A DNA stretch of 64,000 nucleotides, from NCBI GenBank assembly GCA_001189155.1, contig LFCP01000004.1:133618-197617 (forward strand), read 5' to 3'. Position numbers and translations under genes: made by a program. This stretch comes from Parcubacteria bacterium C7867-006. GTDB lineage: Bacteria; Patescibacteriota; Minisyncoccia; Phycocordibacterales; DATDWN01. Numbering within the stretch: the first letter of the stretch is position 1; every line of letters starts with the position of its first letter. Positions 6,805 to 55,642 of the stretch are shown here, piece after piece. The notes beneath the pieces were generated by a model. The model searched no databases, was not told the DNA's origin, and saw only the letters and a list, made by a program, of their open reading frames with translations.

Positions 6805-7188
6805 CTACGTGAGAAGGCGCAAGAGCTTCCTCAAACCATCGCGAAACCTCCTGCGAGTCATCCGGTCGACCGAGGTGAGTTCCTCGGGAAGTATCGTTCC
6901 GCTCACCCTCGACGAAAACGAAAAACCATGAATCCCCAGGAACCGTTCAACAGCAATGATCACTGAACGACGACACGAGCCAAGGAGTGGGTAGACCTCG
7001 ATGATCATCTTCACCTCATCCTTGGTCAGACCCTTTGCGACTCGGTAGGGACTGAAGAACATGTGAAGCACTCCAGCCTCCTTCTTGGAGAGCCGATAGC
7101 GCTTCCTGTAGCGATCCAGAACACCGTCTTGCGCGTTCCGGAGTCTTGCTTCCGAAAATTTCTTCAACTTGATCACTCGCTCCTCCAT
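6805..7188 (-). CDS. GC-rich ORFan (second gene of a two-gene cassette)
   Basis: 127 aa. Its ATG lies 1 nt after the TAG of the upstream ORF (translational coupling). The composition is far more G+C-rich than the flanks. No family recognised. Confidence 0.55.
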   Translation of the reverse strand: MEERVIKLKKFSEARLRNAQDGVLDRYRKRYRLSKKEAGVLHMFFSPYRVAKGLTKDEVKMIIEVYPLLGSCRRSVIIAVERFLGIHGFSFSSRVSGTILPEELTSVDRMTRRRFRDGLRKLLRLLT

Positions 7189-7189
7189 T

Positions 7190-7540
7190 CTAGCTCTGAA
7201 TCTGCCCGACTTCAGCAGCCATGGCCTCCTCGTGTTTCCTCATCTCATCGGCTGCTGCTCGGAAGAACACCTTCAGGCCATCAGGATCCTTCTCCTCGCG
7301 AATCTCATCAGCAACCCAGGAGAGATCGCTCGACGAAAGCCCGAGATCCGGCAGAGCAGTCTTTCCGCTCTTCAGGATTTCTCTAGCTTTCTCGAAACGT
7401 TCCCTTCTCGCATGTAATTCACGACGAGCCAGCCTGAGACCTCCGGGAAGGAACTCGTTCAGGTAGGTGCGCACGGCCTTGCCCACACACATGTGAGCCA
7501 CTCCGCGAAGCAACTCATCTGTTAGTTGGTTGTCGCTCAT
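7190..7540 (-). CDS. GC-rich ORFan (first gene of a two-gene cassette)
   Basis: 116 aa. A G-rich SD-like CCGGGGG lies 7 nt upstream of the ATG, with an AT-rich TTGATT-N17-ATAGTT promoter-like sequence further upstream. Line 7201-7260 is 36/60 G+C. Confidence 0.55.
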   Translation of the reverse strand: MSDNQLTDELLRGVAHMCVGKAVRTYLNEFLPGGLRLARRELHARRERFEKAREILKSGKTALPDLGLSSSDLSWVADEIREEKDPDGLKVFFRAAADEMRKHEEAMAAEVGQIQS

Positions 7541-9232: not shown

Positions 9233-9508
9233 ATGAATCAGCGGGCTATCAGAAAGCTTCCATTTCCACCGGCGAGTCACTTCACATTGGAAATGGTCAG
9301 GCAGATCAAGGCAATCCCTGATGAGGAAATCAGTTACTCCGAACAAGAGATTGTCTGGATGGAACTGGCAATTCAGAATCTTGAGTACATGATTGCCTGT
9401 GCGAAATCACTCGGCATCAAGACGACCGAGATGGATGAGCACAAGGCTCTGTACGAGGCAGTCATTACCAAGAACAATAACCTGACCGCCTCAGACCGCT
9501 CACGCTAA
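9233..9508 (+). CDS. GC-rich ORFan cassette
   Basis: 91 aa. SD AAAGGA lies 5 nt before the ATG. It is followed by the GC hairpin GACCGCTCACGC..GCGTGGGCGGTC. No family recognised. Confidence 0.5.
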   Translation: MNQRAIRKLPFPPASHFTLEMVRQIKAIPDEEISYSEQEIVWMELAIQNLEYMIACAKSLGIKTTEMDEHKALYEAVITKNNNLTASDRSR

Positions 9509-9930: not shown

Positions 9931-10212
9931 ATGAAAAATAAAAACATAGTTATTTCTCTATCAATAATATTTGCATTAGCATTAATAGGTTATTTCTTTT
10001 TTTACAACAAATCAGCACAAAATACAAAAAACCCAAACTCAACAGCAAAAATAAATATAGAAGCCGTTTGCCAAGGTGCACTAGCATATATGACATTCCC
10101 TGACTCAAAAAGTGCAGACATTTATGTAGAGGAGTGTATAGAAGGTAAACATCCAGAAGTAATAGAACGCTATAAAGCATCTTTGAATCTTGATGCTGGA
10201 GTAGCTATATAA
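9931..10212 (+). CDS. Small membrane-anchored or secreted protein
   Basis: 93 aa with an N-terminal hydrophobic helix. TATAAT (9919-9924) lies 6 nt before the ATG. Confidence 0.45.
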   Translation: MKNKNIVISLSIIFALALIGYFFFYNKSAQNTKNPNSTAKINIEAVCQGALAYMTFPDSKSADIYVEECIEGKHPEVIERYKASLNLDAGVAI

Positions 10213-10233
10213 TTTAAATCTCATACAAGATTT

Positions 10234-10242
10234 TGGTATAAT
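10234..10242 (+). promoter_or_regulatory. Extended -10 (TGgTATAAT) 6 nt upstream of ATG 10249 (leaderless)
   Basis: Read directly from the sequence. The string TATAATAACTAAATG is nearly repeated at 10644-10658. Confidence 0.55.
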
Positions 10243-10248
10243 AACTAA

Positions 10249-10587
10249 ATGAAAATATTCACACATTTGCTAGTTTCTACACTAGCCATAATCATAGCAA
10301 CATACATTATTCCTGGAGCAACGATAACTCTCTCAAGTGCTATCGTGCTAGCGGCTGTTCTAGGAGCAATAAATGTTTTCATCAAACCAGTAGTAAAAAT
10401 CATCGCCCTACCGATCACAATACTAACGCTTGGATTCTTTTCTCTCGTTATAAATACTCTATTTATTATTCTAGCTTCAAAAATAGTTCCTGGTTTCTAT
10501 GTATCAGGTTTCTGGCCAGCCTTTTGGTTCTCAATTGCTCTATCACTCATAAACGCTTTTTTCAATCTATTCCAAGATAAAGATTAA
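10249..10587 (+). CDS. YvlD/phage-holin-4-like membrane protein
   Basis: 112 aa with four hydrophobic segments. AVLGAINVFIKPVVKIIALPITILTLG is typical of that family. Confidence 0.55.
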   Translation: MKIFTHLLVSTLAIIIATYIIPGATITLSSAIVLAAVLGAINVFIKPVVKIIALPITILTLGFFSLVINTLFIILASKIVPGFYVSGFWPAFWFSIALSLINAFFNLFQDKD

Positions 10588-10640
10588 AGGATCTCCAAAA
10601 AACTTGAAAAACAAAAGCCCCTAACGGGGTTTTTGTTTTT

Positions 10641-10649
10641 TGATATACT
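10641..10649 (+). promoter_or_regulatory. Extended -10 (TGaTATACT) 6 nt upstream of ATG 10656 (leaderless)
   Basis: Read directly from the sequence. Confidence 0.5.
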
Positions 10650-10655
10650 AACTAA

Positions 10656-11348
10656 ATGACAGAAGAAAAAGTAATTCCTAAAACAAACTTGATTGGTGTA
10701 ATTCTCCAGATCGCTTCTGTATGGGTTCTATCTGACATTGGATACTATATTTTTCTTCCGGCACTTGGTTTTAATGGTGGGTACAATGTTCATCCAGTAC
10801 AAATAACAATCTACTACCTCATATGGACCATAATAGCCATATTTGCCTTCAAAGATATTTTAAAAGATAAAGTAGTTCTAGAAAAAAGACTAGGGACATA
10901 TATTCCACTTGTGGTTGGAAATATTTTTATAGTAATTTACGTATTTTATATACTTCCACTACTTCCAACTATAACATGGACTCCGCCATGGATGCCTCCA
11001 TCAGAGTTACTGAATGCAACAACTTGGTACTTTCTACCGAAATCAATAGAGATATTTCTACAACAAATCCTTCTTCTCGCTCTTGTGATTTCTTTTCTCG
11101 ATAACCAATACAAATTCAAAACAACAGCAATATGGTGCGCACTTCTGTTTGGTGGCAGTCACCTACTGCTAGTTTTTAGTGGAGGTTTTATGTATGCAAC
11201 AGTTTTCACAATAATAGCAGTTGTTGCATCTTTTATATTCACATATCTTTTGCTCGAAGTAAGAAATGGTTTTTTGTATTCATATTTTCTACACTGGATT
11301 TTCTATGCATTTGTCGTTGTTGTAACAAAACTAATTTTCAAAGTTTAA
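10656..11348 (+). CDS. Polytopic membrane protein (weak CPBP/Abi-like resemblance)
   Basis: 230 aa with 6 or more hydrophobic helices. The possible protease motifs are degenerate. Confidence 0.35.
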   Translation: MTEEKVIPKTNLIGVILQIASVWVLSDIGYYIFLPALGFNGGYNVHPVQITIYYLIWTIIAIFAFKDILKDKVVLEKRLGTYIPLVVGNIFIVIYVFYILPLLPTITWTPPWMPPSELLNATTWYFLPKSIEIFLQQILLLALVISFLDNQYKFKTTAIWCALLFGGSHLLLVFSGGFMYATVFTIIAVVASFIFTYLLLEVRNGFLYSYFLHWIFYAFVVVVTKLIFKV

Positions 11349-11396
11349 TTAAAACAAAACCCCCTTTCGGAGGTTTTGTTTTAATTTAGTCTCGAA

Positions 11397-11603: not shown

Positions 11604-11642
11604 TGTACTAGAAGAACATTGAAACCTTTCACAGGAGAGACG

Positions 11643-12653
11643 ATGTCTACGACTGAAGGCCTAGAGGCCCCGCTCGTCACGATACTCGTCCCCTGCTATC
11701 AGTACGGACGGTATCTACGCAATTGTCTGGAAGGAATTTTCGCCCAGACAATCATCGACCAAATATCGGTTGAAATCATCGTCATCAACGATGCATCAAC
11801 CGACAACACTGACGCTGTTATGCGTGAGTTCACGGACCCGCGTATTCACTACATCCGCCACGACAGAAACCGTGGACTCTGCTACACACTGTCAGAAGGA
11901 CTCACCCTCGCAAGAGGTAAGTACTTTACTCGGATTGACGCGGACGACAGATGGAAACCTCACTTTCTGGAAGTAACACTTCCTGAGCTTGAGAGATACC
12001 CTGATGTTGCTCTCGTCTTCGGTGATGTTGCCCATGTTGATGAACAAGGAAACATCATCAACGAGGAAAGTACAATCGCTCGCTCACTTGAGGTTCACGG
12101 CGATCGTGATTTCAAGGGAGACAGATTTCTTTCACAAGTCGGCGAATGCACAATCGGCACCGCTGGTGTGATAGGAAGAACCGAAGCTTGGCGTAAGGGC
12201 CTACCTTTCCCCAAATGCTTTACTTGGGAGTCCCCGTCTGACTGGTGGCTGAACATCATGGCCATCAGAGATGCAGACGTGTACTACAAGAAGGGTATTC
12301 TTGGGGAATACCGCATGCACAGTGCGAGTATGACCCACCAACAAGGTAGTGTTGATGCGGTCGATATTGAACAGACCACCATCGGCGCTATCAATGAAGC
12401 GTTTAGCGGGGTAAATCTGAAAAGAGAACACCGCCTTGCGCGACGCATGATCTACGCCAACGCATGGACCACCCTCGGGAATATCAATTTCGAAAAAAAC
12501 CGAGGTAAAGATTCGAGGAGGTGCTACGCCAACGCAGTGCTCTGGCGACCGGACTATGTTTTAAGAAAGTCCATCGCTCGACACTTCCTGTCGAGTCTCC
12601 TGCCTCGGAAACTGTACGAGAAAATAAAGAAAGGGGTGAAGAAAATGTTCTGA
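11643..12653 (+). CDS. Family 2 glycosyltransferase (GC-rich cassette)
   Basis: Motifs are ILVPCYQ.., NDASTDNT and RIDADD. The start is set at ATG 11643 after AGGAG. Line 11701-11760 is 30/60 G+C. Confidence 0.8.
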   Translation: MSTTEGLEAPLVTILVPCYQYGRYLRNCLEGIFAQTIIDQISVEIIVINDASTDNTDAVMREFTDPRIHYIRHDRNRGLCYTLSEGLTLARGKYFTRIDADDRWKPHFLEVTLPELERYPDVALVFGDVAHVDEQGNIINEESTIARSLEVHGDRDFKGDRFLSQVGECTIGTAGVIGRTEAWRKGLPFPKCFTWESPSDWWLNIMAIRDADVYYKKGILGEYRMHSASMTHQQGSVDAVDIEQTTIGAINEAFSGVNLKREHRLARRMIYANAWTTLGNINFEKNRGKDSRRCYANAVLWRPDYVLRKSIARHFLSSLLPRKLYEKIKKGVKKMF

Positions 12654-13829: not shown

Positions 13830-14150
13830 TTACCCCTTTCGGTGGCCGTTGTCATGGCGATTGTTATCCAGACCCAGATCGATTCGCCTGGACCGAGGCA
13901 GTCGAGGGGCCTCGGTCTGAGGATGACCAAGTGGCTTGACCTTGCTGAGCTCTTGAAGCCCAGCAAAGATCAACTTCCTGACTTCATGACGGGAGGGTTC
14001 GTGCTCGAACATCTTCTTGAACTCCCTGAACAGGAATTCGGGAGTCTCACTGACCAACTTCTTCTGACAGTCCTCGCACACTCCATAATGGCCACTGGTG
14101 AACTTCGGGTCCTCATACAAATGATTACCCTCAACACACATCAAAACCAT
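13830..14150 (-). CDS. GC-rich ORFan cassette (Cys/His-containing N-terminus)
   Basis: The start is set at ATG 14150 (MVLMCVEGNH..) with GAGGGGG 6 nt upstream. The promoter is TTGACT (14204-14209)-N18-TATTCT with TGn. The opposite-strand ORF 13776-14180 lacks comparable signals. Confidence 0.5.
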   Translation of the reverse strand: MVLMCVEGNHLYEDPKFTSGHYGVCEDCQKKLVSETPEFLFREFKKMFEHEPSRHEVRKLIFAGLQELSKVKPLGHPQTEAPRLPRSRRIDLGLDNNRHDNGHRKG

Positions 14151-14220
14151 TGGAACCCCCTCTACACAATCCTTACTTGAGAATATCATATTCAAAAAAC
14201 ATGAGTCAATTTTTTTATAT

Positions 14221-14512
14221 AAAAAAACGAGCCGAAGCTCGATGTAAAGACCCGACTCCACCAATTATGAATCTGGCCAGGATGCAAAATTGGTGGAGTG
14301 GAACGGACTTACCTATCCGTATTACCAAAAACTAGGATAGGTCGGTTACTGATACAGACGCTAGAGATCTCCGTGACTCGCTAGCATCATATCGAAGGTG
14401 AAGGTCCGCTATCCTTCAGGGTGGGAGGACCCTGGGGATTTTTGAGCGATCACCACACAAAAACCAGTGATGTTCTACAACAACGGAGATTGTCGTCACC
14501 ACCAGTTTTCCG
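14221..14512 (-). ncRNA. Candidate ~290-nt non-coding transcript (unit 2), unidentified
   Basis: Promoter TTGACA (14542-14547)-N17-TATTTT. Terminator CGAGC-TTCG-GCTCG followed by T7 (14221-14241). Internal stems are TTGAGCG/CGCTCAA, CAGGGT/ACCCTG, the three-way set GGATAG/CCTATCC/GGATAGG, and a 12-bp stem ACTCCACCAATT/AATTGGTGGAGT. Confidence 0.4.
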
Positions 14513-14549
14513 CTCAACAAAATACATTATTAAATAATTATTGTCAAAT

Positions 14550-14724
14550 AAAAAAACCGTCACATTGACGGCAAATTTCAATGGCATAGTGCCCCCGTCA
14601 ATAAGGTGACGAGCCATTATTGACGGGGGCAAGAGTAACAAAGCTACTCTCTTGTGCCTGATGTGGGTGATTTCTGGTGCCCTGACGGAGTTGAGGACTA
14701 ACACTATCAACACCACACCTTCGA
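14550..14724 (-). ncRNA. Candidate ~175-nt non-coding transcript or attenuator-like leader (unit 1), unidentified
   Basis: Promoter TTGACA (14753-14758)-N16-TACTAT (14731-14736). Perfect 14-bp hairpin at 14591-14630. Terminator GCCGTCA-ATG-TGACGG followed by T7. The terminator arm can instead pair with the 3' arm of the 14-bp hairpin (8 bp, ATTGACGG/CCGTCAAT). Confidence 0.4.
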
Positions 14725-14761
14725 GGAGACATAGTACGAGAAAATAATATTTTGTCAAATT

Positions 14762-18939: not shown

Positions 18940-19022
18940 ATTTCAGATTGTAACAGAATTTTTTATATATGAGAATAGCCGGTCGCCCGGCTATTTTAAT
19001 CATCTCACCCCCCTTTGCTCGT

Positions 19023-19268
19023 TTAAACTTTCTTGTACCTACCAACAAGTTCGGACTTGATGGCGTACACAACGCCACCATCGCCAATAGTCCGCATTGG
19101 CACAACAAACATTCTCTTCGTGCTCTCGTCATTCGGGTTGATCCTCACCTCCTCTTTCCTCTGTCTTTGAATCTCGACAGTGGTTCCAGAATACCAAACA
19201 CCGATCCAGACGAGCTCTCTCAAGCGCTCTCTGTAAACAGAGATGTCGTCGGTAAGTCTAACAATCAT
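19023..19268 (-). CDS. GC-rich ORFan cassette
   Basis: 81 aa. AGGAG lies 5 nt before the ATG, TTGACA lies upstream, and the hairpin AGCCGG-GCGA-CCGGCT lies downstream. No family recognised. Confidence 0.5.
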   Translation of the reverse strand: MIVRLTDDISVYRERLRELVWIGVWYSGTTVEIQRQRKEEVRINPNDESTKRMFVVPMRTIGDGGVVYAIKSELVGRYKKV

Positions 19269-19337
19269 AAAGTCTCCTGATAATTAGGTTACCTTTTTAA
19301 ATAGTGGTGTCAATTATTTTGCTATACTATATATATT

Positions 19338-20192
19338 ATGGAAATCAGGGATCTTCCAAAGAAAGACTTTCCTCCACTCTTGAATGAAATAAACGACCCA
19401 CCAAAGTCACTCAGAATTATTGGTGAGTTACCGAAAACAGAAAAATATCTAGCGGTTGTTGGTTCTAGAAAATATAGTGAGTATGGAAAAGCTGTTTGCG
19501 AAAAACTGATAGAGGGGCTGCGAGGTTATCCTATTACTATAGTATCAGGCCTTGCACTTGGTATTGATTCTATTGGTCACAAAGCTGCAATAAAAGCTGG
19601 ACTACCAACAATTGCAATCCCCGGTTCTGGTCTTTCTCCAAAAGTTTTATATCCATCAAGCCACCAGAACCTAGCAAAAGAGATAGTAGAAAATGGCGGA
19701 TGCTTACTTTCAGAATTTGAAGACAATACTCCTGGATATCCATCAAACTTTCCACAAAGAAACAGAATCATTGCTGGAATGTCCCATACAACTTTAGTTA
19801 TCGAAGCTGAACTTAAATCTGGGACTTTAATTACCTCAAAATACGCTATTGAATATAACCGTGATGTGTTCACGGTTCCTAACTCAATATTTTCAAAAAC
19901 ATCCGAAGGACCGCACATGCTACTCCGACTAGGAGCCACACCCATAACACAGTCCAGTGATATCGTCACAGCACTTGGACTTACTCCACACGAAAATCTT
20001 TTTGAAAAAAGAGATTACAAAGACTGCTCTAGTGATGAACACGAAGTCATAAATCTCCTGTATGAACCAATGTCACGTGATGAAATTATTCAAAAGCTAG
20101 GTAAGCCTGTATATGTAACACAAACAATCCTAGCAACAATGGAAATCAAAGGAATCATAGAAGAAGTGTTGGGAGAGATTCATTTGAAATAG
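19338..20192 (+). CDS. dprA: DNA processing protein DprA/Smf
   Basis: GSRKYS.., SGLALGIDS..H, PQRNRIIAG. Confidence 0.85.
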   Translation: MEIRDLPKKDFPPLLNEINDPPKSLRIIGELPKTEKYLAVVGSRKYSEYGKAVCEKLIEGLRGYPITIVSGLALGIDSIGHKAAIKAGLPTIAIPGSGLSPKVLYPSSHQNLAKEIVENGGCLLSEFEDNTPGYPSNFPQRNRIIAGMSHTTLVIEAELKSGTLITSKYAIEYNRDVFTVPNSIFSKTSEGPHMLLRLGATPITQSSDIVTALGLTPHENLFEKRDYKDCSSDEHEVINLLYEPMSRDEIIQKLGKPVYVTQTILATMEIKGIIEEVLGEIHLK

Positions 20193-20233
20193 TTTTTTAT
20201 TTCACGTATAAATAATGTAGAACTGGAGGGTTC

Positions 20234-20500
20234 ATGATACTCGCACTTGAAAAAATGTTGGTCGATGTCCCGATTTCTGCTGGAGACAGACTGCAGTGGA
20301 ACAACGAAGGTAAGTTTATCACTGCTCAGGCGCAAAGTGGGAAACCACTCTACTGGCACGGCAACCAGCTGAAGAAGATGGCTAGCTGGCTGCGGAGCGA
20401 CGAACAGTTCGACAGCTATGTGATGATTCTGGCAGAAATACTGAATCTCAAGGCTGTCCTCGTTGAAGGTGAACGTCACAGGACTTATCGATTTGAGTGA
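20234..20500 (+). CDS. GC-rich ORFan cassette
   Basis: 88 aa. GGAGGG lies 4 nt before the ATG. The promoter is TTGAAA-N17-TATAAA and a GC hairpin CGGCTCCGCGC..GCGCCGGAGCCG follows. Preferred over the antisense ORF 20180-20515, which lacks an SD. Confidence 0.5.
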   Translation: MILALEKMLVDVPISAGDRLQWNNEGKFITAQAQSGKPLYWHGNQLKKMASWLRSDEQFDSYVMILAEILNLKAVLVEGERHRTYRFE

Positions 20501-20614
20501 TGTTCTTTCGCTCACACACGGCTCCGCGCAACACTGCGCCGGAGCCGTTAAACTTTATAAAAAATAATATGTTAAATTGGACAAAATTTATTTTTATAGT
20601 AATACTAGATAGCA

Positions 20615-28298: not shown

Positions 28299-28814
28299 TT
28301 ACCCCTTCTTCAGAACTAATCTTGGCAAATTCTGAGTAATGGGTAGAGACACAAGTGTCTTTGCTTTGTACAACCTGAAAGCTTCTTGGCGATTGCCATC
28401 AAGAAGATTCGAGATCCTTATGCCGAGTCTCGAAACAGCCTGAGGTTTCGCTTGGGTGGTCGAAGGATAGCACAGAAAGGTAGCATCGTCGTGCACAGGC
28501 TCTGCTCCATATCCAAGTGTACGCAAAGCAGTGCACAAACAGAATGCAAGCCTCTCAGCCCTAGCAAACACAGGGCTAGTTGCGTATCCAATTGGATGAA
28601 TTTCGTTCGCGAGCCAGACGATGCTGAAGTCATCTTTCAGCTTACCGTCAACCTTTCTCTTTGAGGCAACTTGCGCTGCGTTGAAGACCTTCTTCTCGAG
28701 CTTAAAATTCAGCTGGAGAGATGGTTGAAGTCGAAGCTTGTGCCACTCCTTCACTCCCACTTCAACAAACTTGTTCCATTCATCGCTACCAACTGCTCGC
28801 ACCCAGTATTTCAT
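28299..28814 (-). CDS. GC-rich ORFan cassette
   Basis: 171 aa. AAGGAG lies 8 nt before the ATG and the GC hairpin GGGCCGACAA..TTGTCGGaCCC lies after the stop. Wedged between tRNA-Leu(CAA) and miaA. Confidence 0.55.
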   Translation of the reverse strand: MKYWVRAVGSDEWNKFVEVGVKEWHKLRLQPSLQLNFKLEKKVFNAAQVASKRKVDGKLKDDFSIVWLANEIHPIGYATSPVFARAERLAFCLCTALRTLGYGAEPVHDDATFLCYPSTTQAKPQAVSRLGIRISNLLDGNRQEAFRLYKAKTLVSLPITQNLPRLVLKKG

Positions 28815-39494: not shown

Positions 39495-39707
39495 ATGACA
39501 CACAACGAGATTGTCACTCTGATGAGGAGCAGTCGCTCTCCAGAGGAGTGGAAAAGCAATGAGGAGAGAGTGAAAGCTCACTTCTCTGGAAGTCTACCCT
39601 CTTTCTGGTACGGACTGATCGTTCAGTCCGAGGTGGCCAAGAAAACAAAAGCTTCATGGCCAAAACCACGACCCACACAACCCAAACGGCCGAGCCTGTG
39701 CCGCTGA
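39495..39707 (+). CDS. GC-rich ORFan cassette
   Basis: 70 aa. AGGAG lies 6 nt before the ATG, and a GC hairpin plus T-run lies after the stop. Confidence 0.5.
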   Translation: MTHNEIVTLMRSSRSPEEWKSNEERVKAHFSGSLPSFWYGLIVQSEVAKKTKASWPKPRPTQPKRPSLCR

Positions 39708-39805
39708 CACACCGAGCCGCCGAGTTCCGAGAGGAACCCGGCGCTTTCTTATTTTTTTGAATAAACAAAAACCACTTGTAAAAGTGGTTTTTGTTTATTC
39801 AACTA

Positions 39806-43402: not shown

Positions 43403-43431
43403 TTGACTTTTCTATTTTTATGTGATAGAAT
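43403..43431 (+). promoter_or_regulatory. TTGACT-N17-TGaTAGAAT promoter for the GC-rich two-gene module
   Basis: The -35 is at 43403-43408 and the -10 at 43426-43431. A ~65-nt leader follows, with AAAGGA before ATG 43503. Confidence 0.6.
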
Positions 43432-43502
43432 TATAAGCAGATGAGGATAGGCATCCTGCCGACCTCTCAGAACATTGACATCTGCATGAAAGGAAAAAGA
43501 AA

Positions 43503-44834
43503 ATGTCTGGACTAACGATGCTGTCGCTCGTCTTGACGGCACTGTTTCTCCTCTTCGCATTCTACCAGTCGAGGCCGAGCAAAACAGCCAAACCTGAAGA
43601 AGGACAAGAGAAGAAGTCGTCAAACGAACGACACAACCTTTGGTATCACCTGGGGTTCGTCGATGACACACCGAACCTGATTCGTCAGGTCGTCGCTGGA
43701 AGCGCAAAAAGCGGCCGGCCGATCAGGTACTTTGGGAACCTGCACGACGGGGTTATTGATGAGGCCACTGGCATCATTACATCCAACCCTAACCCACCCC
43801 TCCTTTCGGAGGGTTGGTTCCTGAATTTGATCAGGAAACACTTCGGCAAACGCTGGTGTCGCATTCCGATCATCCAGCATGTGAAGCCTTTGACGATTGA
43901 CCGGGTGGTCAGCAAGGACACCAAGTCAACTGTCAACGAACTCTCCGATGAACTTGACGCCTCAACAGTCGTCAAGGAAGGTCTCTACCGACTGATTCTT
44001 CGCCCAACCCTTCACAAGGATGTTGACGCGAAGAACAACATCCGGTTTAGCGTAATCAGTTACGCTGTTCTGGAAGTGTTCGACGCCAAACCGGCGTTCA
44101 ACATCTACCCGGACAGCTACTTGATCACTGTCAGCAAACTGATCTCTGCTTATCTTTCGAAGAATACCTTCAAACTTTCGTACGATGAGTACAAAGAGCG
44201 AGGGAACTCCTTCGAAAAAGAGCAGATCGATGAGTTGAACGGCGTGCTTCTCAGTCTGGGAATTCGGTGCAAGGAACTTCGTATGGGCGACCCTGAACTC
44301 AACAAGAGTGTTCAGGAAAGCCTTGAAAAAGAAGCCAAGGCTGAACAAGAAGCCAAGGCTCAGAAACGAAAGGGTCAGGGCCAAAAAGACTACGATACTC
44401 TCGTGTCCGAAGGCCAGTCCCAAGCAATCAGGAATCTGGCTGCCGCCAAGGCATCCAGGTTCTCTGAACTCATCAACCTCTACAAGAACGAAGGCTTGAC
44501 TGGGTCTGAAGCAGTGGACAGAGCAAATGCAATGATCTCAGCCGAGTTCAACGCAGATGCTGTTCGACAGCTTCAAGGAACCTACGTCGCTTCAGGTAAC
44601 GGCGTTCAACTTGCCGTTATGGAGAGAAGACCAAGTGCAACTACAAGTTCGACTACCGAAGCTGCAGCTCAAGCAGCGCCTACTGGCAGTCAGTCAGTGG
44701 GCCAGGCCTCGGCTCAACCAGCTCAACCTGTGGCTCAAAAGCCTATGGCTCCGAGCACAACCCAGGCTGGTCAGACTCCGCATCAGAATCAAGGCAGGGG
44801 TCACAAAGACAAGGGCCGCCGCAACAAGAAATAA
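43503..44834 (+). CDS. GC-rich membrane-anchored protein with an SPFH/band-7-like core and a low-complexity Ala/Gln/Pro/Thr tail
   Basis: N-terminal TM helix. LGIRCKELRMGDPELNKSVQESLEKEAKAEQEAKAQ and downstream GQSQAIRNLAAAKA resemble SPFH C-terminal blocks. Line 43561-43620 is 30/60 G+C. Confidence 0.45.
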   Translation: MSGLTMLSLVLTALFLLFAFYQSRPSKTAKPEEGQEKKSSNERHNLWYHLGFVDDTPNLIRQVVAGSAKSGRPIRYFGNLHDGVIDEATGIITSNPNPPLLSEGWFLNLIRKHFGKRWCRIPIIQHVKPLTIDRVVSKDTKSTVNELSDELDASTVVKEGLYRLILRPTLHKDVDAKNNIRFSVISYAVLEVFDAKPAFNIYPDSYLITVSKLISAYLSKNTFKLSYDEYKERGNSFEKEQIDELNGVLLSLGIRCKELRMGDPELNKSVQESLEKEAKAEQEAKAQKRKGQGQKDYDTLVSEGQSQAIRNLAAAKASRFSELINLYKNEGLTGSEAVDRANAMISAEFNADAVRQLQGTYVASGNGVQLAVMERRPSATTSSTTEAAAQAAPTGSQSVGQASAQPAQPVAQKPMAPSTTQAGQTPHQNQGRGHKDKGRRNKK

Positions 44835-44949
44835 ACGGTCCAACACCATCGTTGCGGTCATTGCGATCATCACGCTGATTATCGCGAAGATCGCAACTAG
44901 CGTCTTCCACTTTCTGTCGGAGATTGGTCTTTGGTTCAAAGCGGAAGCT

Positions 44950-45825
44950 ATGAACTACTATCAAACTCCCAGTGGTGGACTGATTAGCAAGGTAATACTG
45001 GTGGTTCTCCCGGTTGCATCATTTGCGCTTGCGTACGTGATGTATCGGAGGAACCATCCAACTTCTCCGAGGTTCAAATATCGTAGTAGCCGAAGTTCGA
45101 AAGACTTCGCCGCTGCTGTGATGATGCCGTTTGGCCTGGCCATCGGCGTCGGAATCCTCTGGGGAGTTGTGTACTTCCTGGCTTGGGGGCCTGGAATTCT
45201 GCACTACTTCTCTTTCCCTATCTGGGGAAAAGCGGAAGCTAGGATGAGCACTCCAACCAACAGTGGCTTCGTCGACAAAAACGAAGTCCACCGTCGGACG
45301 GGAGAGTTCTGGTATTCCAACTTGCCACCGACCGAGGCCAAGGAGATGCTCGACATCGCCACGGAAGAGTCACATTTCCAGCAATTCAACACTGATGGGA
45401 GTGTCTTCACCGGCGTGGACGACCCAGCCGACACGGGCGTGATGCAAATCAACGTCCGTGAGAACCAGAAAGACCTGATAGCGTGGGGGCTCAACGTCAA
45501 CACTCTCGAAGGAAATCTGGAAGCGGCCAAAAGGCTTCGTCAGAAATACGGCACGAAGCCTTGGCAACGGACGGTGGATAAAATCAAAAACCGTCCGTCG
45601 CAGATAATCACCATCAAGGTGCCAAAGGAAGGTCGCAGTGAAAGGTTTACCCCCGACGGCAGATTCTGCCAGGGTCAAACCGATCTTCCAGTCACCGTAT
45701 GGGACGACAAAGGTAGGAGCCACCCAATGACTCCGACCAGCGTTCCAACTGTTCCGTCGTTGTGGTATGAGTACTCCACTCCAAGTGGAGGCTCACTCCC
45801 AACGATCACCATTTCATGCAGGTAA
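44950..45825 (+). CDS. GC-rich membrane-anchored lytic transglycosylase (SLT-domain) protein
   Basis: Catalytic block TEESHFQQFN and GVMQINV. The start is set at the first ATG after the upstream stop. The ORF-track start 44557 would overlap the upstream gene by 278 nt. Confidence 0.6.
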   Translation: MNYYQTPSGGLISKVILVVLPVASFALAYVMYRRNHPTSPRFKYRSSRSSKDFAAAVMMPFGLAIGVGILWGVVYFLAWGPGILHYFSFPIWGKAEARMSTPTNSGFVDKNEVHRRTGEFWYSNLPPTEAKEMLDIATEESHFQQFNTDGSVFTGVDDPADTGVMQINVRENQKDLIAWGLNVNTLEGNLEAAKRLRQKYGTKPWQRTVDKIKNRPSQIITIKVPKEGRSERFTPDGRFCQGQTDLPVTVWDDKGRSHPMTPTSVPTVPSLWYEYSTPSGGSLPTITISCR

Positions 45826-45831
45826 CGCAAA

Positions 45832-45866
45832 GCGCGGAGACCCTTCGGGGCCCTCCGCGCTTTTTT
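45832..45866 (+). terminator. GCGCGGAG-N13-CTCCGCGC followed by TTTTTT
   Basis: Located 6 nt after the stop TAA at 45823-45825. Confidence 0.8.
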
Positions 45867-45886
45867 CATATCTGAATTTTGTGTTG

Positions 45887-46195
45887 TTATAGTTTTAGAA
45901 AATTCGTTGCACCTGAAGAATTTATATCAGAAGATGTTATACCGAATGTTCCCATAACAAAACGTATAATCCCAAAAACAGAAAACATAATAACCATACC
46001 TGCGATCCCCCACATTATTGCACTTCTTGACTCTCCTCTAGTTTTATCAGCAGAATTTAAATCTTGATTTAGGAAATTGAATACTCCGTAAACAAAATAC
46101 AAAAACGATACCGCAAACATTAGTAACAAAAGTGGATTGATAATCAAATCAATTACTTTGTTTAGGAAAGGTACAATAGATAATGATGAGGACAT
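45887..46195 (-). CDS. TrbC/VirB2-like (type IV secretion pilin-like) small membrane protein, paralog 6
   Basis: Two hydrophobic helices flank a polar loop with the shared ..MWGI.. motif. No signal peptide. Confidence 0.45.
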   Translation of the reverse strand: MSSSLSIVPFLNKVIDLIINPLLLLMFAVSFLYFVYGVFNFLNQDLNSADKTRGESRSAIMWGIAGMVIMFSVFGIIRFVMGTFGITSSDINSSGATNFLKL

Positions 46196-46210
46196 AATTT
46201 GTCCGAAAAA

Positions 46211-46555
46211 TTAAAGACCTAGAACCTGTGGAGGTTGAATAGCTCCATTGTTAGTTACTCCCAAGTTTGTTTGCAACCAGTAAACTAGACCGTAGATAGA
46301 AAGCATCACTGCAATAGCAACAACACCCCAAATCATCTGATTTCGGCCAGCTTCCTGTGCCTTTGGATCTCCTGCAGCTCGTAGAAATACAACAAGTCCC
46401 CAGAAGAAGTAAATGATAGCTAAGGCGAACATTATTGGAATAATTCTTCCTATAATTTGTCCAAAATCCTGAACTAGAGCAGAAAGGTTACCCAATGTCT
46501 GAGCAAAAGTTAGAACTGGAGCCAAAGCTAAAGCTGAATAAATAATTTTCTTCAT
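46211..46555 (-). CDS. TrbC/VirB2-like pilin-like protein, paralog 5
   Basis: Signal peptide, then the core FFWGLVVFLRAAGDPKAQEAGRNQMIWGVV. Confidence 0.5.
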   Translation of the reverse strand: MKKIIYSALALAPVLTFAQTLGNLSALVQDFGQIIGRIIPIMFALAIIYFFWGLVVFLRAAGDPKAQEAGRNQMIWGVVAIAVMLSIYGLVYWLQTNLGVTNNGAIQPPQVLGL

Positions 46556-46641
46556 TTTTTTAAATTAACTATTAAATAACTAATGTAATAATTGTAGTAC
46601 AAAATCAATAAAAAACAAGTATATTGTGGATAAAGAAAATA

Positions 46642-47043
46642 TTAATTTCCAAATGTTGGTAAAGTATAACCACCTTGTTGTGGTGTATACAAACCAGAAG
46701 AACTACTAGTTCCATTTGGTGAGATACCGATTAGATTACCTATAGCCATTAAGATTCCATAAATTGAAAACATCACAAATAACGCAATAACTCCCCAAAG
46801 CATTTTTTTCTTTCCATCTTCTCGTGTTTTATCACTAGCCGCATCATTTAGAATAAACTGCGCTCCACCCCAAAAGAAAAAAGCCATTGCAAGACCAAAC
46901 ACAATTCTAATTCCAAAATTAATAAGTCCACCAAAATCCACAAGTAATGTTCTGAGACTGTCTAGAGCAGCAAAAGAGACAACCGGTAAAACCAGAGCCA
47001 AAGATGATGCTAAATAAATCCTTTTGTTTAATTTCATATTCAT
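46642..47043 (-). CDS. TrbC/VirB2-like pilin-like protein, paralog 4
   Basis: Signal peptide, then the core FFWGGAQFILNDAASDKTREDGKKKMLWGVI. Confidence 0.5.
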   Translation of the reverse strand: MNMKLNKRIYLASSLALVLPVVSFAALDSLRTLLVDFGGLINFGIRIVFGLAMAFFFWGGAQFILNDAASDKTREDGKKKMLWGVIALFVMFSIYGILMAIGNLIGISPNGTSSSSGLYTPQQGGYTLPTFGN

Positions 47044-47056
47044 ATTATTTTAATAA

Positions 47057-47512
47057 TTATGGTGCCGGAACCCCACTTGGTAAATTAAAAGTACTTGTAT
47101 TCTGACCACTGTTTGTTGAAGTTGGTATAAGTGGAATAGTTGATGAATCCCCTATCTCCAAATCTCGAGCTATCAATCCTATGATAGCTCTTACAGAAAT
47201 AAGAACAAACAGCACAACAACCCCCCATATCATATAATTTTTACCCTTCTGCACATCTGCTGGACTACCAGAGTTTAGAATAAACCTCGATAGACCCCAG
47301 AAAAATGCTAAGAAACTTAAAGCAAAAAGTATCGGAATAATAAGAGAGATAACATTTATTATATGGTAGATACTACAACCAAAATCAACACCTATTAAAG
47401 AAAAACTACTAGTGTCGCAAGCTGTTACTCCAGAAGTAAACTGAGAAAAAACAAAAGTTGGAAACATTAGCACTATCAGAATGAGAAACTTTAAATGTTT
47501 TTTTGTATTCAT
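47057..47512 (-). CDS. TrbC/VirB2-like pilin-like protein, paralog 3
   Basis: The start is set at ATG 47512 (MNTKKHLKF). The core is FFWGLSRFILNSGSPADVQKGKNYMIWGVV. Confidence 0.5.
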   Translation of the reverse strand: MNTKKHLKFLILIVLMFPTFVFSQFTSGVTACDTSSFSLIGVDFGCSIYHIINVISLIIPILFALSFLAFFWGLSRFILNSGSPADVQKGKNYMIWGVVVLFVLISVRAIIGLIARDLEIGDSSTIPLIPTSTNSGQNTSTFNLPSGVPAP

Positions 47513-47520
47513 ATTTTTAT

Positions 47521-47925
47521 CTAGTTCATAAGAGCTCTGACTGTATTTTCGACAACAACTGAAATAGCAGCCGCTCCCAGAAGTATACCTGCACCAATAA
47601 GTGACCATAAAAGGTTTTTCTTTGCGTCATCAATTTTCTTTGGGTTACCTTGAGCAAGAACAAACTGAAAACCTGCCCAGACAATCCAAACCACAACAGC
47701 AACAGCAGCTATTGGCATAACTATATTTGACAATATAACTCTAATCAAAGCCATAAGGTCATTACCTCCATTAAAAGGATTATCGATTTTCGCACCTATC
47801 TGTGTTGAACCTGGAGTTGGTGATTGTGTTGTTGATGGAGCTGGCATTGTTTGAGCCAACAAAATTACCGGGGCAAGCATCACAAGAAAACCCATAACAG
47901 AAAATATTTTTTTTATTTTATTCAT
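47521..47925 (-). CDS. TrbC/VirB2-like pilin-like protein, paralog 2
   Basis: Signal peptide, then the core VWAGFQFVLAQGNPKKIDDAKKNLLWSLI. Confidence 0.5.
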   Translation of the reverse strand: MNKIKKIFSVMGFLVMLAPVILLAQTMPAPSTTQSPTPGSTQIGAKIDNPFNGGNDLMALIRVILSNIVMPIAAVAVVVWIVWAGFQFVLAQGNPKKIDDAKKNLLWSLIGAGILLGAAAISVVVENTVRALMN

Positions 47926-47934
47926 AAATTTTTA

Positions 47935-48399
47935 TTAACCTAATGGTACCAAATTTTTAACATTGTTATTCAATAAACTATTTGTAATCAGTGTAACTAT
48001 GAGCCAAGCTGCTAACATAAAAAATATTCCCCAAGCAACCTTAACAAGCCTACCGTTTGCCCTTGCTCTAGCCCCCGGATTACCTCCAGATGTCATATAC
48101 TCAAAACCAACATATGCAATTATTACAACAGTAAAAGCTAGGGCAAGAGGAATAGCTATTCCAAAAAATTTCTTAACCGCATATATCAAATCATTAAAAC
48201 CACAATCCCCATAGATAGTGGTGCCGTTAGGACCAGGCCTACTACATTCATATGTTATACCAGTACTCTGACCACCTCCAGTTGTGTCTGTACTTCCACC
48301 TGGAGGAACCATTACTTGTGAATATGAAAAAACAGGTAGAGAAATAAATAAAGCTATCAAAAAGAATTTTAATATTTCTGATTTTATTTTATTTTTCAT
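47935..48399 (-). CDS. TrbC/VirB2-like pilin-like protein, paralog 1 (most divergent)
   Basis: Signal peptide followed by the same helix-GNP-loop-helix layout. Confidence 0.4.
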   Translation of the reverse strand: MKNKIKSEILKFFLIALFISLPVFSYSQVMVPPGGSTDTTGGGQSTGITYECSRPGPNGTTIYGDCGFNDLIYAVKKFFGIAIPLALAFTVVIIAYVGFEYMTSGGNPGARARANGRLVKVAWGIFFMLAAWLIVTLITNSLLNNNVKNLVPLG

Positions 48400-48400
48400 A

Positions 48401-49693
48401 TTATTTTAATTGAGCATTTAACTCCAAATTAACTCTATTGAGTGCCTCTGGTATACTAGTTTTTCCACCAGTTATAGATTCTATCATATCCCTAAACAAG
48501 TTTGAGCTTTGTGTTGGTTCTGGATCAATCCATGAGTGTGAAATCAAAGCTGAGTTATAAAATACAGTTCTGTAGGCATCTGTTGGCGCATCTGCTAACA
48601 AATCTCTTCTTACTGGAGGAAGATTAACTACAGTTTCAAGTGCTTTTATAGATGCTGGCTCTACCAAAGATACAGCTAGAGTGTATGCGCCAGCAATTTT
48701 TTGAGATTGTTTAACAATAGAGAGCGAATACATATGTCCAAATACAGATTTTTTTGGAGCATTTCTTATTTGAGGAACATAAGTTACATCAAAATTTAAG
48801 TTTGAATTTTTTTGTTGTATAGGGAATATTTCTGAAGCAAATCCAATATATGTTGCAAGATTTCCAGCTAAAAACATATTTAATGAGTTTGGTAATGATC
48901 TGTTCCATGTATAAGCAGGAGAAGTTGGATTTGAAAACTGAGTATAGAAACTGACTGCTGACTGACTAGGTGCTATAGGATAGTTAAATACAGCATTTAA
49001 AACAGATACTACATTGCTGTTTTGTCTTGTTGTAATAGGAGTACCAGCCTGAATCAATATCATTGATAGAATCTCTTTTGCATTTACTATATTTCTCCAC
49101 TCTCCCAATGCAACAGTAGCTTGTAAAATGTTCGCATTGTTATCACGTTTAGTCATTTTATTTATAAGATCATATATCTCATCCCAATATTTTGGAGGTT
49201 GAGGAATGACATTGTTTGAAAACATATCTCTATTCCAATACATAACAAGAGGATCAACAATAAAAGGCAGTGAGGTGACACCATCTGGAGCTAGAAACAT
49301 TTCCCCTTCCTCTATGAAAGTATCTTTAAATGTTCTAGCTGAATAGTTTTTATATGGAATAGTAAAAATTTTATTTCTATTCTGATAAACCCAATCATCT
49401 CTCAATATCACAAGATCAGGTCCCTTTCCGTCAGCAAGAGCCTCAACAAAGCTTTGTTGAAAATCTACAGAATCCTTTTTAACATAAGTAACTTTTATTA
49501 GTTTATTACTTGCAACAGAAGAAGCTTTATAGGCGGCATTAAAAGCATTATCACTTATTGTTCCCCAAACCAACAAATCAGCTTGAGCTGATGAAGATGA
49601 CCCTTTCGACATAGCAAACAAGAAAAGCCCGACCACTATTGAAACAGAAAAGATTGCTAAAACTGCAAGTTGAAATTTACTTAGATTATTCAT
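48401..49693 (-). CDS. Extracellular solute-binding protein (ABC-type, family 1-like), membrane anchored
   Basis: 430 aa with an N-terminal TM helix and an SBP-like alternating pattern. No permease or ATPase gene is adjacent. Confidence 0.6.
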   Translation of the reverse strand: MNNLSKFQLAVLAIFSVSIVVGLFLFAMSKGSSSSAQADLLVWGTISDNAFNAAYKASSVASNKLIKVTYVKKDSVDFQQSFVEALADGKGPDLVILRDDWVYQNRNKIFTIPYKNYSARTFKDTFIEEGEMFLAPDGVTSLPFIVDPLVMYWNRDMFSNNVIPQPPKYWDEIYDLINKMTKRDNNANILQATVALGEWRNIVNAKEILSMILIQAGTPITTRQNSNVVSVLNAVFNYPIAPSQSAVSFYTQFSNPTSPAYTWNRSLPNSLNMFLAGNLATYIGFASEIFPIQQKNSNLNFDVTYVPQIRNAPKKSVFGHMYSLSIVKQSQKIAGAYTLAVSLVEPASIKALETVVNLPPVRRDLLADAPTDAYRTVFYNSALISHSWIDPEPTQSSNLFRDMIESITGGKTSIPEALNRVNLELNAQLK

Positions 49694-55270: not shown

Positions 55271-55591
55271 TCAATCGTTTTCGCGTTCGAACTCGTCGTC
55301 CTTATGATCCTTCCGACGCTTTTTCTCGACCGACAGTTTCTTTCGCTCGAGGATCTGGACGAGTTGTTCCGCCATCTCCTTGTGGTGTGATGGCAAACGA
55401 CTCGGCCAACTCTCAAGCCTAGAATGTACGAGAGCGATGAGCTCGTCGTGACCGGTCCGAATATCGAGCCTCATCATGAACCTCATGAAGTGGAATTCGA
55501 TACCCGTATCGATAGAAGCCGTTCGCATCTCCTTGATGAACGCCTCCGAAATCGAAAGCTCCTCGTCATCCTCAGACACTCGCTGCGCCAT
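55271..55591 (-). CDS. GC-rich ORFan cassette (acidic/basic helical protein)
   Basis: The start is set at ATG 55591 (MAQRVSEDDE) with AAGGAG 6 nt upstream. The promoter is TTGACT-N16-TACTCT. 106 aa. Confidence 0.5.
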   Translation of the reverse strand: MAQRVSEDDEELSISEAFIKEMRTASIDTGIEFHFMRFMMRLDIRTGHDELIALVHSRLESWPSRLPSHHKEMAEQLVQILERKKLSVEKKRRKDHKDDEFEREND

Positions 55592-55642
55592 ATGTACTCC
55601 TTCAGTCTGCCAGAGTAACACTTTAATCGATTTAGTCAATTT

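Follow-up and report, generated by a model that had tools for sequence, protein, structure and literature searches.

The stretch of DNA analysed here (the window) is 64,000 nt of contig LFCP01000004.1 (199 kb) of Parcubacteria bacterium C7867-006. Positions 43403–45866 form a single transcription unit in which a sigma-70-type promoter is followed by a structured leader, two genes (ORF1 and ORF2) and a strong terminator (Table 1). A convergent operon of VirB2/TrbC-like pilin genes, headed by a gene for a solute-binding protein, faces it across the terminator.

Table 1. Features of the two-gene operon and of the facing pilin operon, in window coordinates.
Feature	Position	Strand	Details
Sigma-70-type promoter, extended −10	43403..43431	+	TTGACT, N17, TG-n-TAGAAT; 10/12 positions matched
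Structured 5′ leader	43438..43502	+	Outer stem GCAGATG/CATCTGC round a two-tier hairpin, then ribosome-binding site AAAGGAAAAA
ORF1, SPFH/Band-7 membrane scaffold protein, 443 aa	43503..44834	+	Pfam, AlphaFold2, Foldseek
ORF1 N-terminal membrane helix	43509-43568	+	
ORF1 SPFH domain	about 43851-44387	+	
ORF1 long coiled-coil helices	about 44304-44573	+	
ORF1 disordered low-complexity tail	about 44574-44831	+	
Overlap of ORF1 tail (frame 0) and ORF2 5′ end (+1 frame)	44635..44834	+	200 nt
ORF2, revised start (probable), 396 aa	44635..45825	+	GTG 44635; public annotation ATG 44950 (291 aa)
ORF2 membrane helices (three)	44845-44916, 44980-45045, 45106-45186	+	
ORF2 lysozyme-like domain, predicted external	about 45277-45591	+	Glu245 45367-45369, Asp266 45430-45432
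ORF2 C-terminal beta domain, conserved Cys pair	about 45601-45822	+	
Intrinsic terminator	45833..45866	+	GC-rich bulged hairpin GCGCGGAG..CTCCGCGC plus T6
Six VirB2/TrbC-like pilin genes (T4SS_pilin)	45887..48399	-	Convergent with the operon
Solute-binding-protein gene heading the pilin operon	48401..49693	-	Pfam SBP_bac_8, SBP_bac_1

A promoter scan of the window was by itself at chance level (8 sites against 7.2 expected), but TTGACT(T)-spacer-TGATAnAnT is conserved 5′ of the orthologous SPFH gene in eight lineages, so the promoter is real; this upholds an earlier sequence-only reading of this DNA, which had called it a textbook promoter. We found no evidence of a regulon, the −10 box alone having 5 near-matches in the window against 2 expected. 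Transcription would start near 43438, and the leader that follows contains a two-tier hairpin, GAGG..GGCA-TCC-TGCC..CCTC, with a minimum-free-energy fold of −15 kcal/mol (z = −2.0). Folding predicts this two-tier hairpin in 6 of 7 lineages, with compensatory changes in its stem (GAGG/CCTC, CAAG/CTTG, CAAA/TTTG, CAAAA/TTTTG); these were taken from per-sequence folds, the MAFFT alignment having misplaced the stems. Rfam assigned the leader no family, with no match in the window at gathering thresholds and nothing meaningful for the leader at relaxed ones. The terminator, which the same reading had judged strong, folds at −24.4 kcal/mol (RNAfold) ahead of its T-run, and an equivalent GC-rich hairpin and T-run lie at the same position in 7 of 7 loci examined; the terminator scan missed it because the stem is bulged. 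With an A-run at its flank, the hairpin probably acts as terminator for the convergent pilin operon as well.

ORF1 matches Pfam Band_7 (PF01145) over residues 117–295 at 30.8 bits (cut-off 23.6), and a precomputed PF01145 match exists for 5 of 8 orthologues. An AlphaFold2 model gave a helix at residues 3–22, an SPFH core with pLDDT 75–91 and helices at residues 268–329 and 334–357, and Foldseek matched it to prohibitin, HflK/C, stomatin and QmcA (E 5e-7 to 1e-5, probability 1.00), so the previous description of a membrane-anchored SPFH/band-7-like protein was borne out. Beyond Band_7, searches of PHROGs and NCBIfam returned weak HflC-like and phrog_200 matches only. ORF1 is a single-pass scaffold; basic residues come after its membrane helix, which puts its bulk probably in the cytoplasm. 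A segment at residues about 45–115 is an N-terminal addition conserved in this SPFH subfamily only. The long Ala/Gln/Pro/Thr tail remarked on earlier does exist in ORF1 as a low-complexity stretch, but it is missing from most orthologues; rather than a functional tail, it is most plausibly a lineage-specific extension in which ORF1 continues across the real 5′ end of ORF2.

That 5′ end is probably GTG 44635 rather than the annotated ATG 44950. A ribosome-binding site, GGAGAG, lies 8 nt 5′ of the GTG, and the 25 nt around the two are identical in L001, a 75%-identical relative. Comparison of the window with L001 revealed that the pattern of substitutions flips at the GTG, from one typical of ORF1 (1/1/11 at codon positions 1/2/3) to one typical of ORF2 (13/11/7). 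Lineage L008 has AAGGAG-ATG at the corresponding place and the remaining lineages checked have the ORF1 stop at or beside the ORF2 start, such that the start of ORF2 abuts or overlaps the end of ORF1 in every lineage checked. A programmed frameshift fusing ORF1 to ORF2 was considered and rejected, as most lineages stop and then start at the junction, with ribosome-binding site and start codon conserved. As publicly annotated, ORF2 seems to be missing its first 105 residues, one membrane helix among them.

Within the N-terminal 70 residues of ORF2 there are 18 K/R and no D/E. Helices 2 and 3 are joined by a loop that is likewise basic, and these topology signals place the catalytic domain outside the cell by prediction. 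This domain has a lysozyme-like fold in which the catalytic Glu ends a helix and is followed by Ser, and carries the motifs Glu-Ser and Asp-x-Gly-x-Met-Gln-Ile-Asn; it is closest to c-type lysozyme and to the type III secretion enzyme EtgA. A single-sequence search of the PDB with ORF2 returned noise only, and the ORF2 family profile matched many c-type lysozymes (E 9e-5 to 6e-4) with Glu35 and Asp52/53 aligned. Pfam SLT (PF01464, GH23) had no match in ORF2 at E <= 0.1 and weak ones in just 8 of 36 family members (best E 3.7e-4), while Pfam Lys (PF00062) reached only E 0.0054, below cut-off, in 2 of 6 relatives. Searches of Pfam, PHROGs and NCBIfam assigned ORF2 to no family, and no defence-system model in PADLOC matched ORF1 or ORF2. 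Thus, of the two protein assignments put to profile and structure searches, SPFH passed both Pfam and Foldseek and SLT failed Pfam: the proposed membrane-anchored SLT-domain muramidase keeps its anchor, its lysozyme fold and its motifs and loses the strict SLT label, the profiles matching c-type lysozymes instead. The four disulfides of c-type lysozyme are absent, the ORF2 catalytic domain having no Cys, and relatives have one Cys pair (C-E-S ... W-x-C). These features support ORF2 as a predicted enzyme of the lysozyme/lytic-transglycosylase superfamily, anchored in the membrane and bearing motifs of the VirB1/EtgA type. GH23 lytic transglycosylases cleave non-hydrolytically to 1,6-anhydro-MurNAc; the conserved Asp of ORF2 aligns with lysozyme Asp52, making a hydrolytic mechanism possible. 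In one lineage, L016, the catalytic motif is degenerate, which may mean that not every lineage needs catalysis.

Five of the six pilin genes score 26.7–36.5 bits against T4SS_pilin (PF18895; cut-off 26.6) and the sixth (45887–46195) scores 17.5 bits; a paralogue HMM recovers all six, the sixth at E 2e-28, and each has a one-to-one orthologue in relatives. Between the terminator T-run and the stop codon of the nearest pilin gene there are 20 nt, as had been noted before. All nine lineages examined, the most distant at 36% protein identity, have the order SPFH gene, lysozyme-like gene, six pilin genes, with the pair at the same site and always convergent to the same array, so the association with pilins that had been proposed stands. 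The solute-binding-protein gene is present in 7 of 7 relatives whose contigs extend that far. Lineages differ in the arrangement of the upstream flank (PK, IF-2/rbfA, PG_binding, fn3/YggT); the pilin junction is never broken. Synteny within the clade takes in housekeeping genes too (methyltransferase, gyrA, IF-2/rbfA). Scans of GTDB genomes and of JGI metagenomes yielded 2 loci and 1 locus, respectively, indicating that the SPFH-lysozyme family is rare. MurA-like and MurB genes in the window indicate that the organism makes peptidoglycan. A search for VirB4, VirD4 and VirB6, which the sequence-only reading had proposed as a check, found none in the 64-kb window (Pfam scans or precomputed Pfam matches, covering nearly all ORFs >= 130 aa).

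We compared ORF2 with peptidoglycan-cleaving enzymes of secretion systems and pili, namely VirB1 (type IV), EtgA, IpgF and IagB (type III) and P19 (plasmid R1). Like them, it is predicted to have a small lysozyme-fold domain with a catalytic Glu-Ser and the motif Asp-x-Gly-[LIV]-Met-Gln-Ile-Asn, and its gene adjoins genes for surface filaments. Unlike the VirB1/EtgA group, which are secreted soluble proteins, ORF2 is anchored by three membrane helices, has an extra C-terminal beta domain, is paired with an SPFH protein, lacks a Pfam SLT match and has neither VirB4 nor VirB6 nearby in the window. A type IV VirB1 is encoded with VirB4, VirB6 and VirD4, company that ORF2 does not keep within the window, although it adjoins pilin genes in all nine lineages. 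C-type lysozymes (GH22) provide the best PDB profile matches, with both acidic residues aligned, but ORF2 is bacterial, membrane-anchored and without their four disulfides, and the Pfam Lys matches are marginal and occur in relatives only. A second comparison was with SPFH proteins and their clients: HflK/C with FtsH, QmcA with the NfeD protein YbbJ, and stomatin operons. ORF1 shares with HflK/C, QmcA and stomatin an N-terminal membrane anchor, an SPFH domain and long coiled-coil helices, and differs in its additional N-terminal segment; the ORF1-ORF2 pair resembles SPFH-client operons in its polytopic membrane partner and translational coupling, but the partner is a lysozyme-like enzyme rather than a protease or NfeD protein. 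The pilins resemble the VirB2-like arrays that are common in Patescibacteria (441 arrays in 383 assemblies; PMC12102498), being six divergent T4SS_pilin genes in tandem on the chromosome. Most VirB2-bearing Patescibacteria genomes in that survey have no detectable VirB1, a role that other glycosidases may take (PMC12102498), whereas the array described here is adjoined by the gene of a lysozyme-like protein missed by the Pfam models tried. In S. epibionticum, lysozyme and peptidase genes adjoining virB4 are essential (PMC12102498).

Together, the operon anatomy, the folds and motifs, the topology signals and the conserved gene neighbourhood led us to propose that the pair is a VirB1/EtgA-like wall-opening enzyme and its SPFH partner, serving the VirB2-like pilin locus, a proposal to which we give about an even chance. 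ORF2 would display its lysozyme-fold domain on the outside and cut the cell's own peptidoglycan locally, and through this opening the neighbouring VirB2-like pilins would be assembled or extruded across the wall. The SPFH protein, as an oligomeric ring or microdomain, would interact with ORF2 and confine or gate a dangerous enzyme; HflK/C with FtsH and QmcA with YbbJ are precedents for SPFH proteins acting on clients. We draw the functional link between the pair and the pili solely from gene neighbourhood. Several observations count against wall opening: the pair and the pilin operon converge and are not co-transcribed, VirB4, VirD4 and VirB6 are missing from the window, Pfam SLT is blind to ORF2, the L016 motif is degenerate, and the persistent GC excess of the operon (see below) falls outside the model.

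Because synteny extends to housekeeping genes, the adjacency of the pair to the pilins could have been inherited rather than selected. ORF2 might then be an autolysin, and ORF1 its membrane regulator, for general cell-wall housekeeping in growth and division, which we consider possible if somewhat unlikely. The family of the catalytic domain is very large (2326 clusters of small lysozyme-like proteins at E <= 1e-10), its members are encoded near L27, Peptidase_M23, murG and ftsW and not near pilins, and the separate convergent transcription units of pair and pilins would also agree with a housekeeping role. However, the long membrane-anchored form is rare, accounting for about six whole-profile clusters among the best 150, and lies beside a six-pilin array in 9 of 9 contexts, with the pilin junction intact even where the upstream flank has been rearranged. 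Moreover, the related genomes examined have a small paralogue at a separate housekeeping locus (the window has none).

The wall that is cut could also be that of another cell. Patescibacteria are thought to be host-dependent, with type IV secretion-like genes serving this dependence (PMC11665869), and an external lysozyme domain might attack host peptidoglycan at the attachment site of a presumably epibiotic organism. Although the catalytic domain is predicted to face outward and the two proteins evolve fast, as is frequent in interface proteins, reach past the organism's own wall is doubtful for a protein with three membrane helices and only about 190 external residues, and no toxin- or immunity-like partner is present. 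We regard a host-directed tool as improbable.

The composition of the operon bears on its origin. GC content is 0.51–0.535 over 43.5–46 kb (about 52% for the block) against about 0.31–0.35 (about 34%) on either side, with GC1, GC2 and GC3 each elevated; GC3 is 0.58 and 0.63 in the two genes, compared with a median of 0.256 (sd 0.134) for 76 ORFs in the window. The limits of the GC-rich composition are exactly those of the transcription unit. The operon is the biggest of about a dozen GC3-rich islets in the window, the remainder being no longer than about 1.1 kb, and its GC excess is seen in 8 of 9 lineages. A chimeric assembly was excluded, because the block is 100% identical in JGI and Logan assemblies of the same population and its gene order is common to related organisms; the only close sequences, L003 and L004, are identical to the window. 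A phage origin was set aside after two IMG/VR scans without any relative.

What had been called the largest foreign-composition block is therefore indeed the largest GC3-rich islet, but the foreign part of that description, together with the idea of a horizontally acquired accessory, is not supported, since the operon occupies the same site and orientation in nine lineages, down to 36–37% SPFH identity, with promoter, leader and terminator conserved. A recent island from a phage, a plasmid or a GC-rich donor, inserted beside the pilins, would account for the GC content, for proteins that evolve faster than their neighbours and for an identity ranking across lineages that departs in part from the ranking of the solute-binding protein, and genomic islands are common in Patescibacteria (PMC12455944), yet it is very improbable: gene tables and sequence showed neither integrase nor transposase nor repeats at the flanks, no tRNA gene turned up beside the block in a tRNA scan, IMG/VR viral contigs contained no relatives, every homologue found comes from the same bacterial group, and the nearest catalytic-domain relatives are small proteins of that group with native composition. 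Judged by these comparisons of sequence, the block appears to be an ancestral two-gene operon of one Parcubacteria (Paceibacteria) clade and no recent insertion. Atypical GC alone is no evidence of recent transfer here, as deeply diverged relatives have this GC-rich operon at the corresponding site.

A bolder reading, which we think unlikely, joins two claims: that the pair is the undetected VirB1 equivalent needed by Patescibacterial VirB2-like pili, and that its GC-rich composition is actively maintained and no fading trace of horizontal transfer. Possible causes of such maintenance are codon or mRNA selection restraining an autolysin, or a GC bias linked to recombination at a surface locus that evolves fast.

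The type IV secretion-like genes of Patescibacteria are essential yet unexplained, and the pair offers a concrete candidate for the missing wall-opening function of VirB1: a predicted lysozyme-fold enzyme, invisible to the Pfam models tried, fixed beside a VirB2-like array across a whole clade. Its SPFH partner is unprecedented for such an enzyme and points to a way in which a lytic enzyme might be kept confined.

The block that the sequence-only reading had placed beside a pilin array in this one stretch has the same layout in relatives: in nine lineages (the window and the related loci L001, L005/L010, L008, L009, L011, L012, L016 and L017), an SPFH gene (ORF1) and a lysozyme-like gene (ORF2) are read towards the same array of six VirB2/TrbC-like pilin genes. 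In the window the six convergent genes start 20 nt past the terminator T-run, as had been described, and the pilin operon is headed by a solute-binding-protein gene, which is found on all seven contigs long enough to show it. The flank upstream of the pair differs among the nine lineages. Compared with the window, the SPFH protein is 37-66% identical, ORF2 27-76% and the solute-binding protein 60-72%, the two proteins of the pair evolving faster than their neighbours.

Features of the block and of related genes (window positions unless a locus is named)
Feature	Position	Remark
Promoter TTGACT-N17-(TG)aTAGAAT	43403-43431	Read in sequence
Structured 5' leader	43438-43502	About 65 nt between promoter and start codon
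ORF1, SPFH/Band_7 gene	43503-44834	
Terminator GCGCGGAG..CTCCGCGC + T6	45833-45866	Read in sequence
Small lysozyme-like proteins	L013 8001-8435; L014 8001-8486; L002 1282-1815	
GC3-rich islets	6805-7540, 9233-9508, 11619-12653, 13830-14758, 18969-19280, 20180-20515, 28299-28814, 39514-39768, 55271-55639	

The previously described promoter and terminator are both present in the sequence. A promoter consensus scan alone was uninformative, since it found 8 sites vs 7.2 expected; comparative data settle that the block's expression signals are real. Eight lineages, with proteins just 37-66% identical, keep TTGACT(T)-spacer-TGATAnAnT ahead of the orthologous gene, and in 7/7 loci examined a GC-rich hairpin and T-run, retained in structure and divergent in sequence, separate the ORF2 stop from the last pilin gene. 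This hairpin, which in the window (45826-45886) has an A-run on one flank and a T-run on the other, probably ends both convergent operons. For the leader, folding predicts a two-tier hairpin in six of seven lineages; its outer stem shows compensatory changes, and several lineages add an enclosing stem. The leader matched no Rfam family and may act as a regulatory RNA in cis.

In the public annotation ORF2 begins at ATG 44950 (291 aa), a codon not conserved in L001, a 75%-identical relative, and upstream of it amino-acid conservation and one membrane helix persist. A ribosome-binding site, GGAGAG, precedes GTG 44635, and the 25 nt around this GTG are identical in L001, ORF1 third-codon positions included. 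There the differences per codon position 1/2/3 switch from an ORF1-type 1/1/11 to an ORF2-type 13/11/7; the homologous place in L008 reads AAGGAG-ATG, and in the remaining lineages checked the ORF1 stop lies at or directly beside the ORF2 start. Conservation, the ribosome-binding site and the substitution pattern together make a length of 396 aa the most likely for ORF2. The long Ala/Gln/Pro/Thr tail reported for the SPFH protein is present, but it is most likely a run-on that overlaps the 5' end of ORF2 by 200 nt (44635-44834, +1 frame); AlphaFold2 predicts it to be disordered, and it is absent from most orthologues, which end ...GE(K/R)(K/R). L001 carries a 141-nt duplication in the overlap zone (2650-2790), in-frame for ORF2 and bearing the ORF1 stop, and its SPFH gene is broken into two ORFs at 1825-1886, by frameshift or assembly error.

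The SPFH identity of ORF1 held up, with a Pfam Band_7 match above cut-off and an AlphaFold2 model (N-terminal membrane helix, SPFH core, two long helices) that Foldseek matched to prohibitin, HflK/C, stomatin and QmcA, each at probability 1.0. In every orthologue the membrane helix is followed by basic residues, suggesting a mostly cytoplasmic protein. In L005, the deposited start of the orthologue P0008 (TTG at 1601; 1601-1702) falls within the conserved promoter, so its 34 N-terminal residues are an annotation artefact; the real start is an ATG ~100 nt downstream.

ORF2 had no significant Pfam match, and only two close homologues were found among 5.8 billion proteins searched. Its sequence profiles match c-type lysozymes (E 9e-5 to 6e-4) with the catalytic Glu and Asp aligned, its AlphaFold2 model, made with the family alignment, has pLDDT 90-98 across the catalytic domain, and Glu245-Ser246 and Asp266-x-Gly-x-Met-Gln-Ile-Asn are (nearly) invariant throughout the family. 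Together these confirm a lysozyme fold with VirB1/EtgA-type motifs; formal Pfam SLT membership, as the proposed SLT-domain muramidase would have it, did not stand. Assignment to GH22 fails on disulfides. The catalytic domain is predicted to lie outside the cell, on the basis of charge distribution and three hydrophobic segments. The C-terminal domain, some 75 residues long and containing a conserved pair of Cys, is a low-confidence beta sandwich in the model.

A profile from syntenic ORF2 orthologues led to a family of small proteins in the same bacterial group. This family is large (110-200 aa; 2326 clusters at E <= 1e-10 in an exhaustive search with the ORF2 family profile) and is without Pfam assignment. 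The small catalytic-domain paralogues lie elsewhere, in a conserved housekeeping neighbourhood of Paceibacteria/Nomurabacteria genomes (near L27, Peptidase_M23, GluRS, murG and ftsW), and have native base composition.

From gene neighbourhood only, we infer a functional link between the pair and the pilins. The main rival is that the pair serves a general cell-wall role. Motifs and pilin neighbourhood speak for a VirB1-type partner of the pilin apparatus, as first proposed, though not for its horizontal acquisition; against the VirB1-like reading stands a degenerate active site in one lineage, L016, whose ORF2 orthologue (10176-11372) lacks Asp-x-Gly-x-x-Gln-Ile-Asn, has Glu-Ala-Ser in place of Glu-Ser and may be a non-catalytic version. 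VirB4, VirD4 and VirB6, suggested as companions to look for, were not found among the scanned window ORFs (a set covering nearly all of at least 130 aa), the majority of which are housekeeping genes. An edge ORF at 9-1550 has type I restriction enzyme R-subunit domains (ResIII, Helicase_C, EcoEI_R_C).

The atypical composition of the block was borne out: GC is 51-53% at 43.4-45.9 kb vs 31-35% on either side, GC3 of the pair is 0.58 and 0.63 vs a window median of 0.256, and the GC-rich zone is coextensive with the transcription unit. The window derives from a metagenome-assembled genome, "Parcubacteria bacterium C7867-006", whose AB201_02410 is 100% identical to ORF2, and JGI and Logan assemblies of the same population match the window exactly across the block region. 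The insertion of the sequence-only reading, taken as a recent one, does not fit the shared layout in nine lineages and a GC3 excess that recurs in eight of them (0.37-0.63 vs 0.16-0.43 in neighbouring genes); the ninth genome is GC-richer, and its pair shows no GC3 contrast to its neighbours. Nor did the suggested phage link find a counterpart, the viral contigs searched yielding no relatives. The GC excess may reflect selection acting at the codon or mRNA level, a GC bias linked to recombination, or an old unameliorated transfer. Elsewhere in the window, about a dozen smaller islets have GC3 of 0.45-0.66 vs a genome median of 0.26; one encodes a family-2 glycosyltransferase, and the remaining products have no significant Pfam match. 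Comparable GC-rich small genes occur in related loci (e.g. L005 8370-9500; L011 1351-2727 and 10728-11282).

Overall, the original observation is confirmed and its interpretation partly supported. Detectable VirB1 is missing from most VirB2-bearing Patescibacteria, in which other glycosidases may stand in (PMC12102498). The best-supported reading of the pair is a conserved operon at a VirB2-like pilin locus, coding for a putative membrane scaffold and a membrane-anchored enzyme that would cleave peptidoglycan there, analogous to VirB1 or EtgA; the SPFH partner may confine the enzyme.
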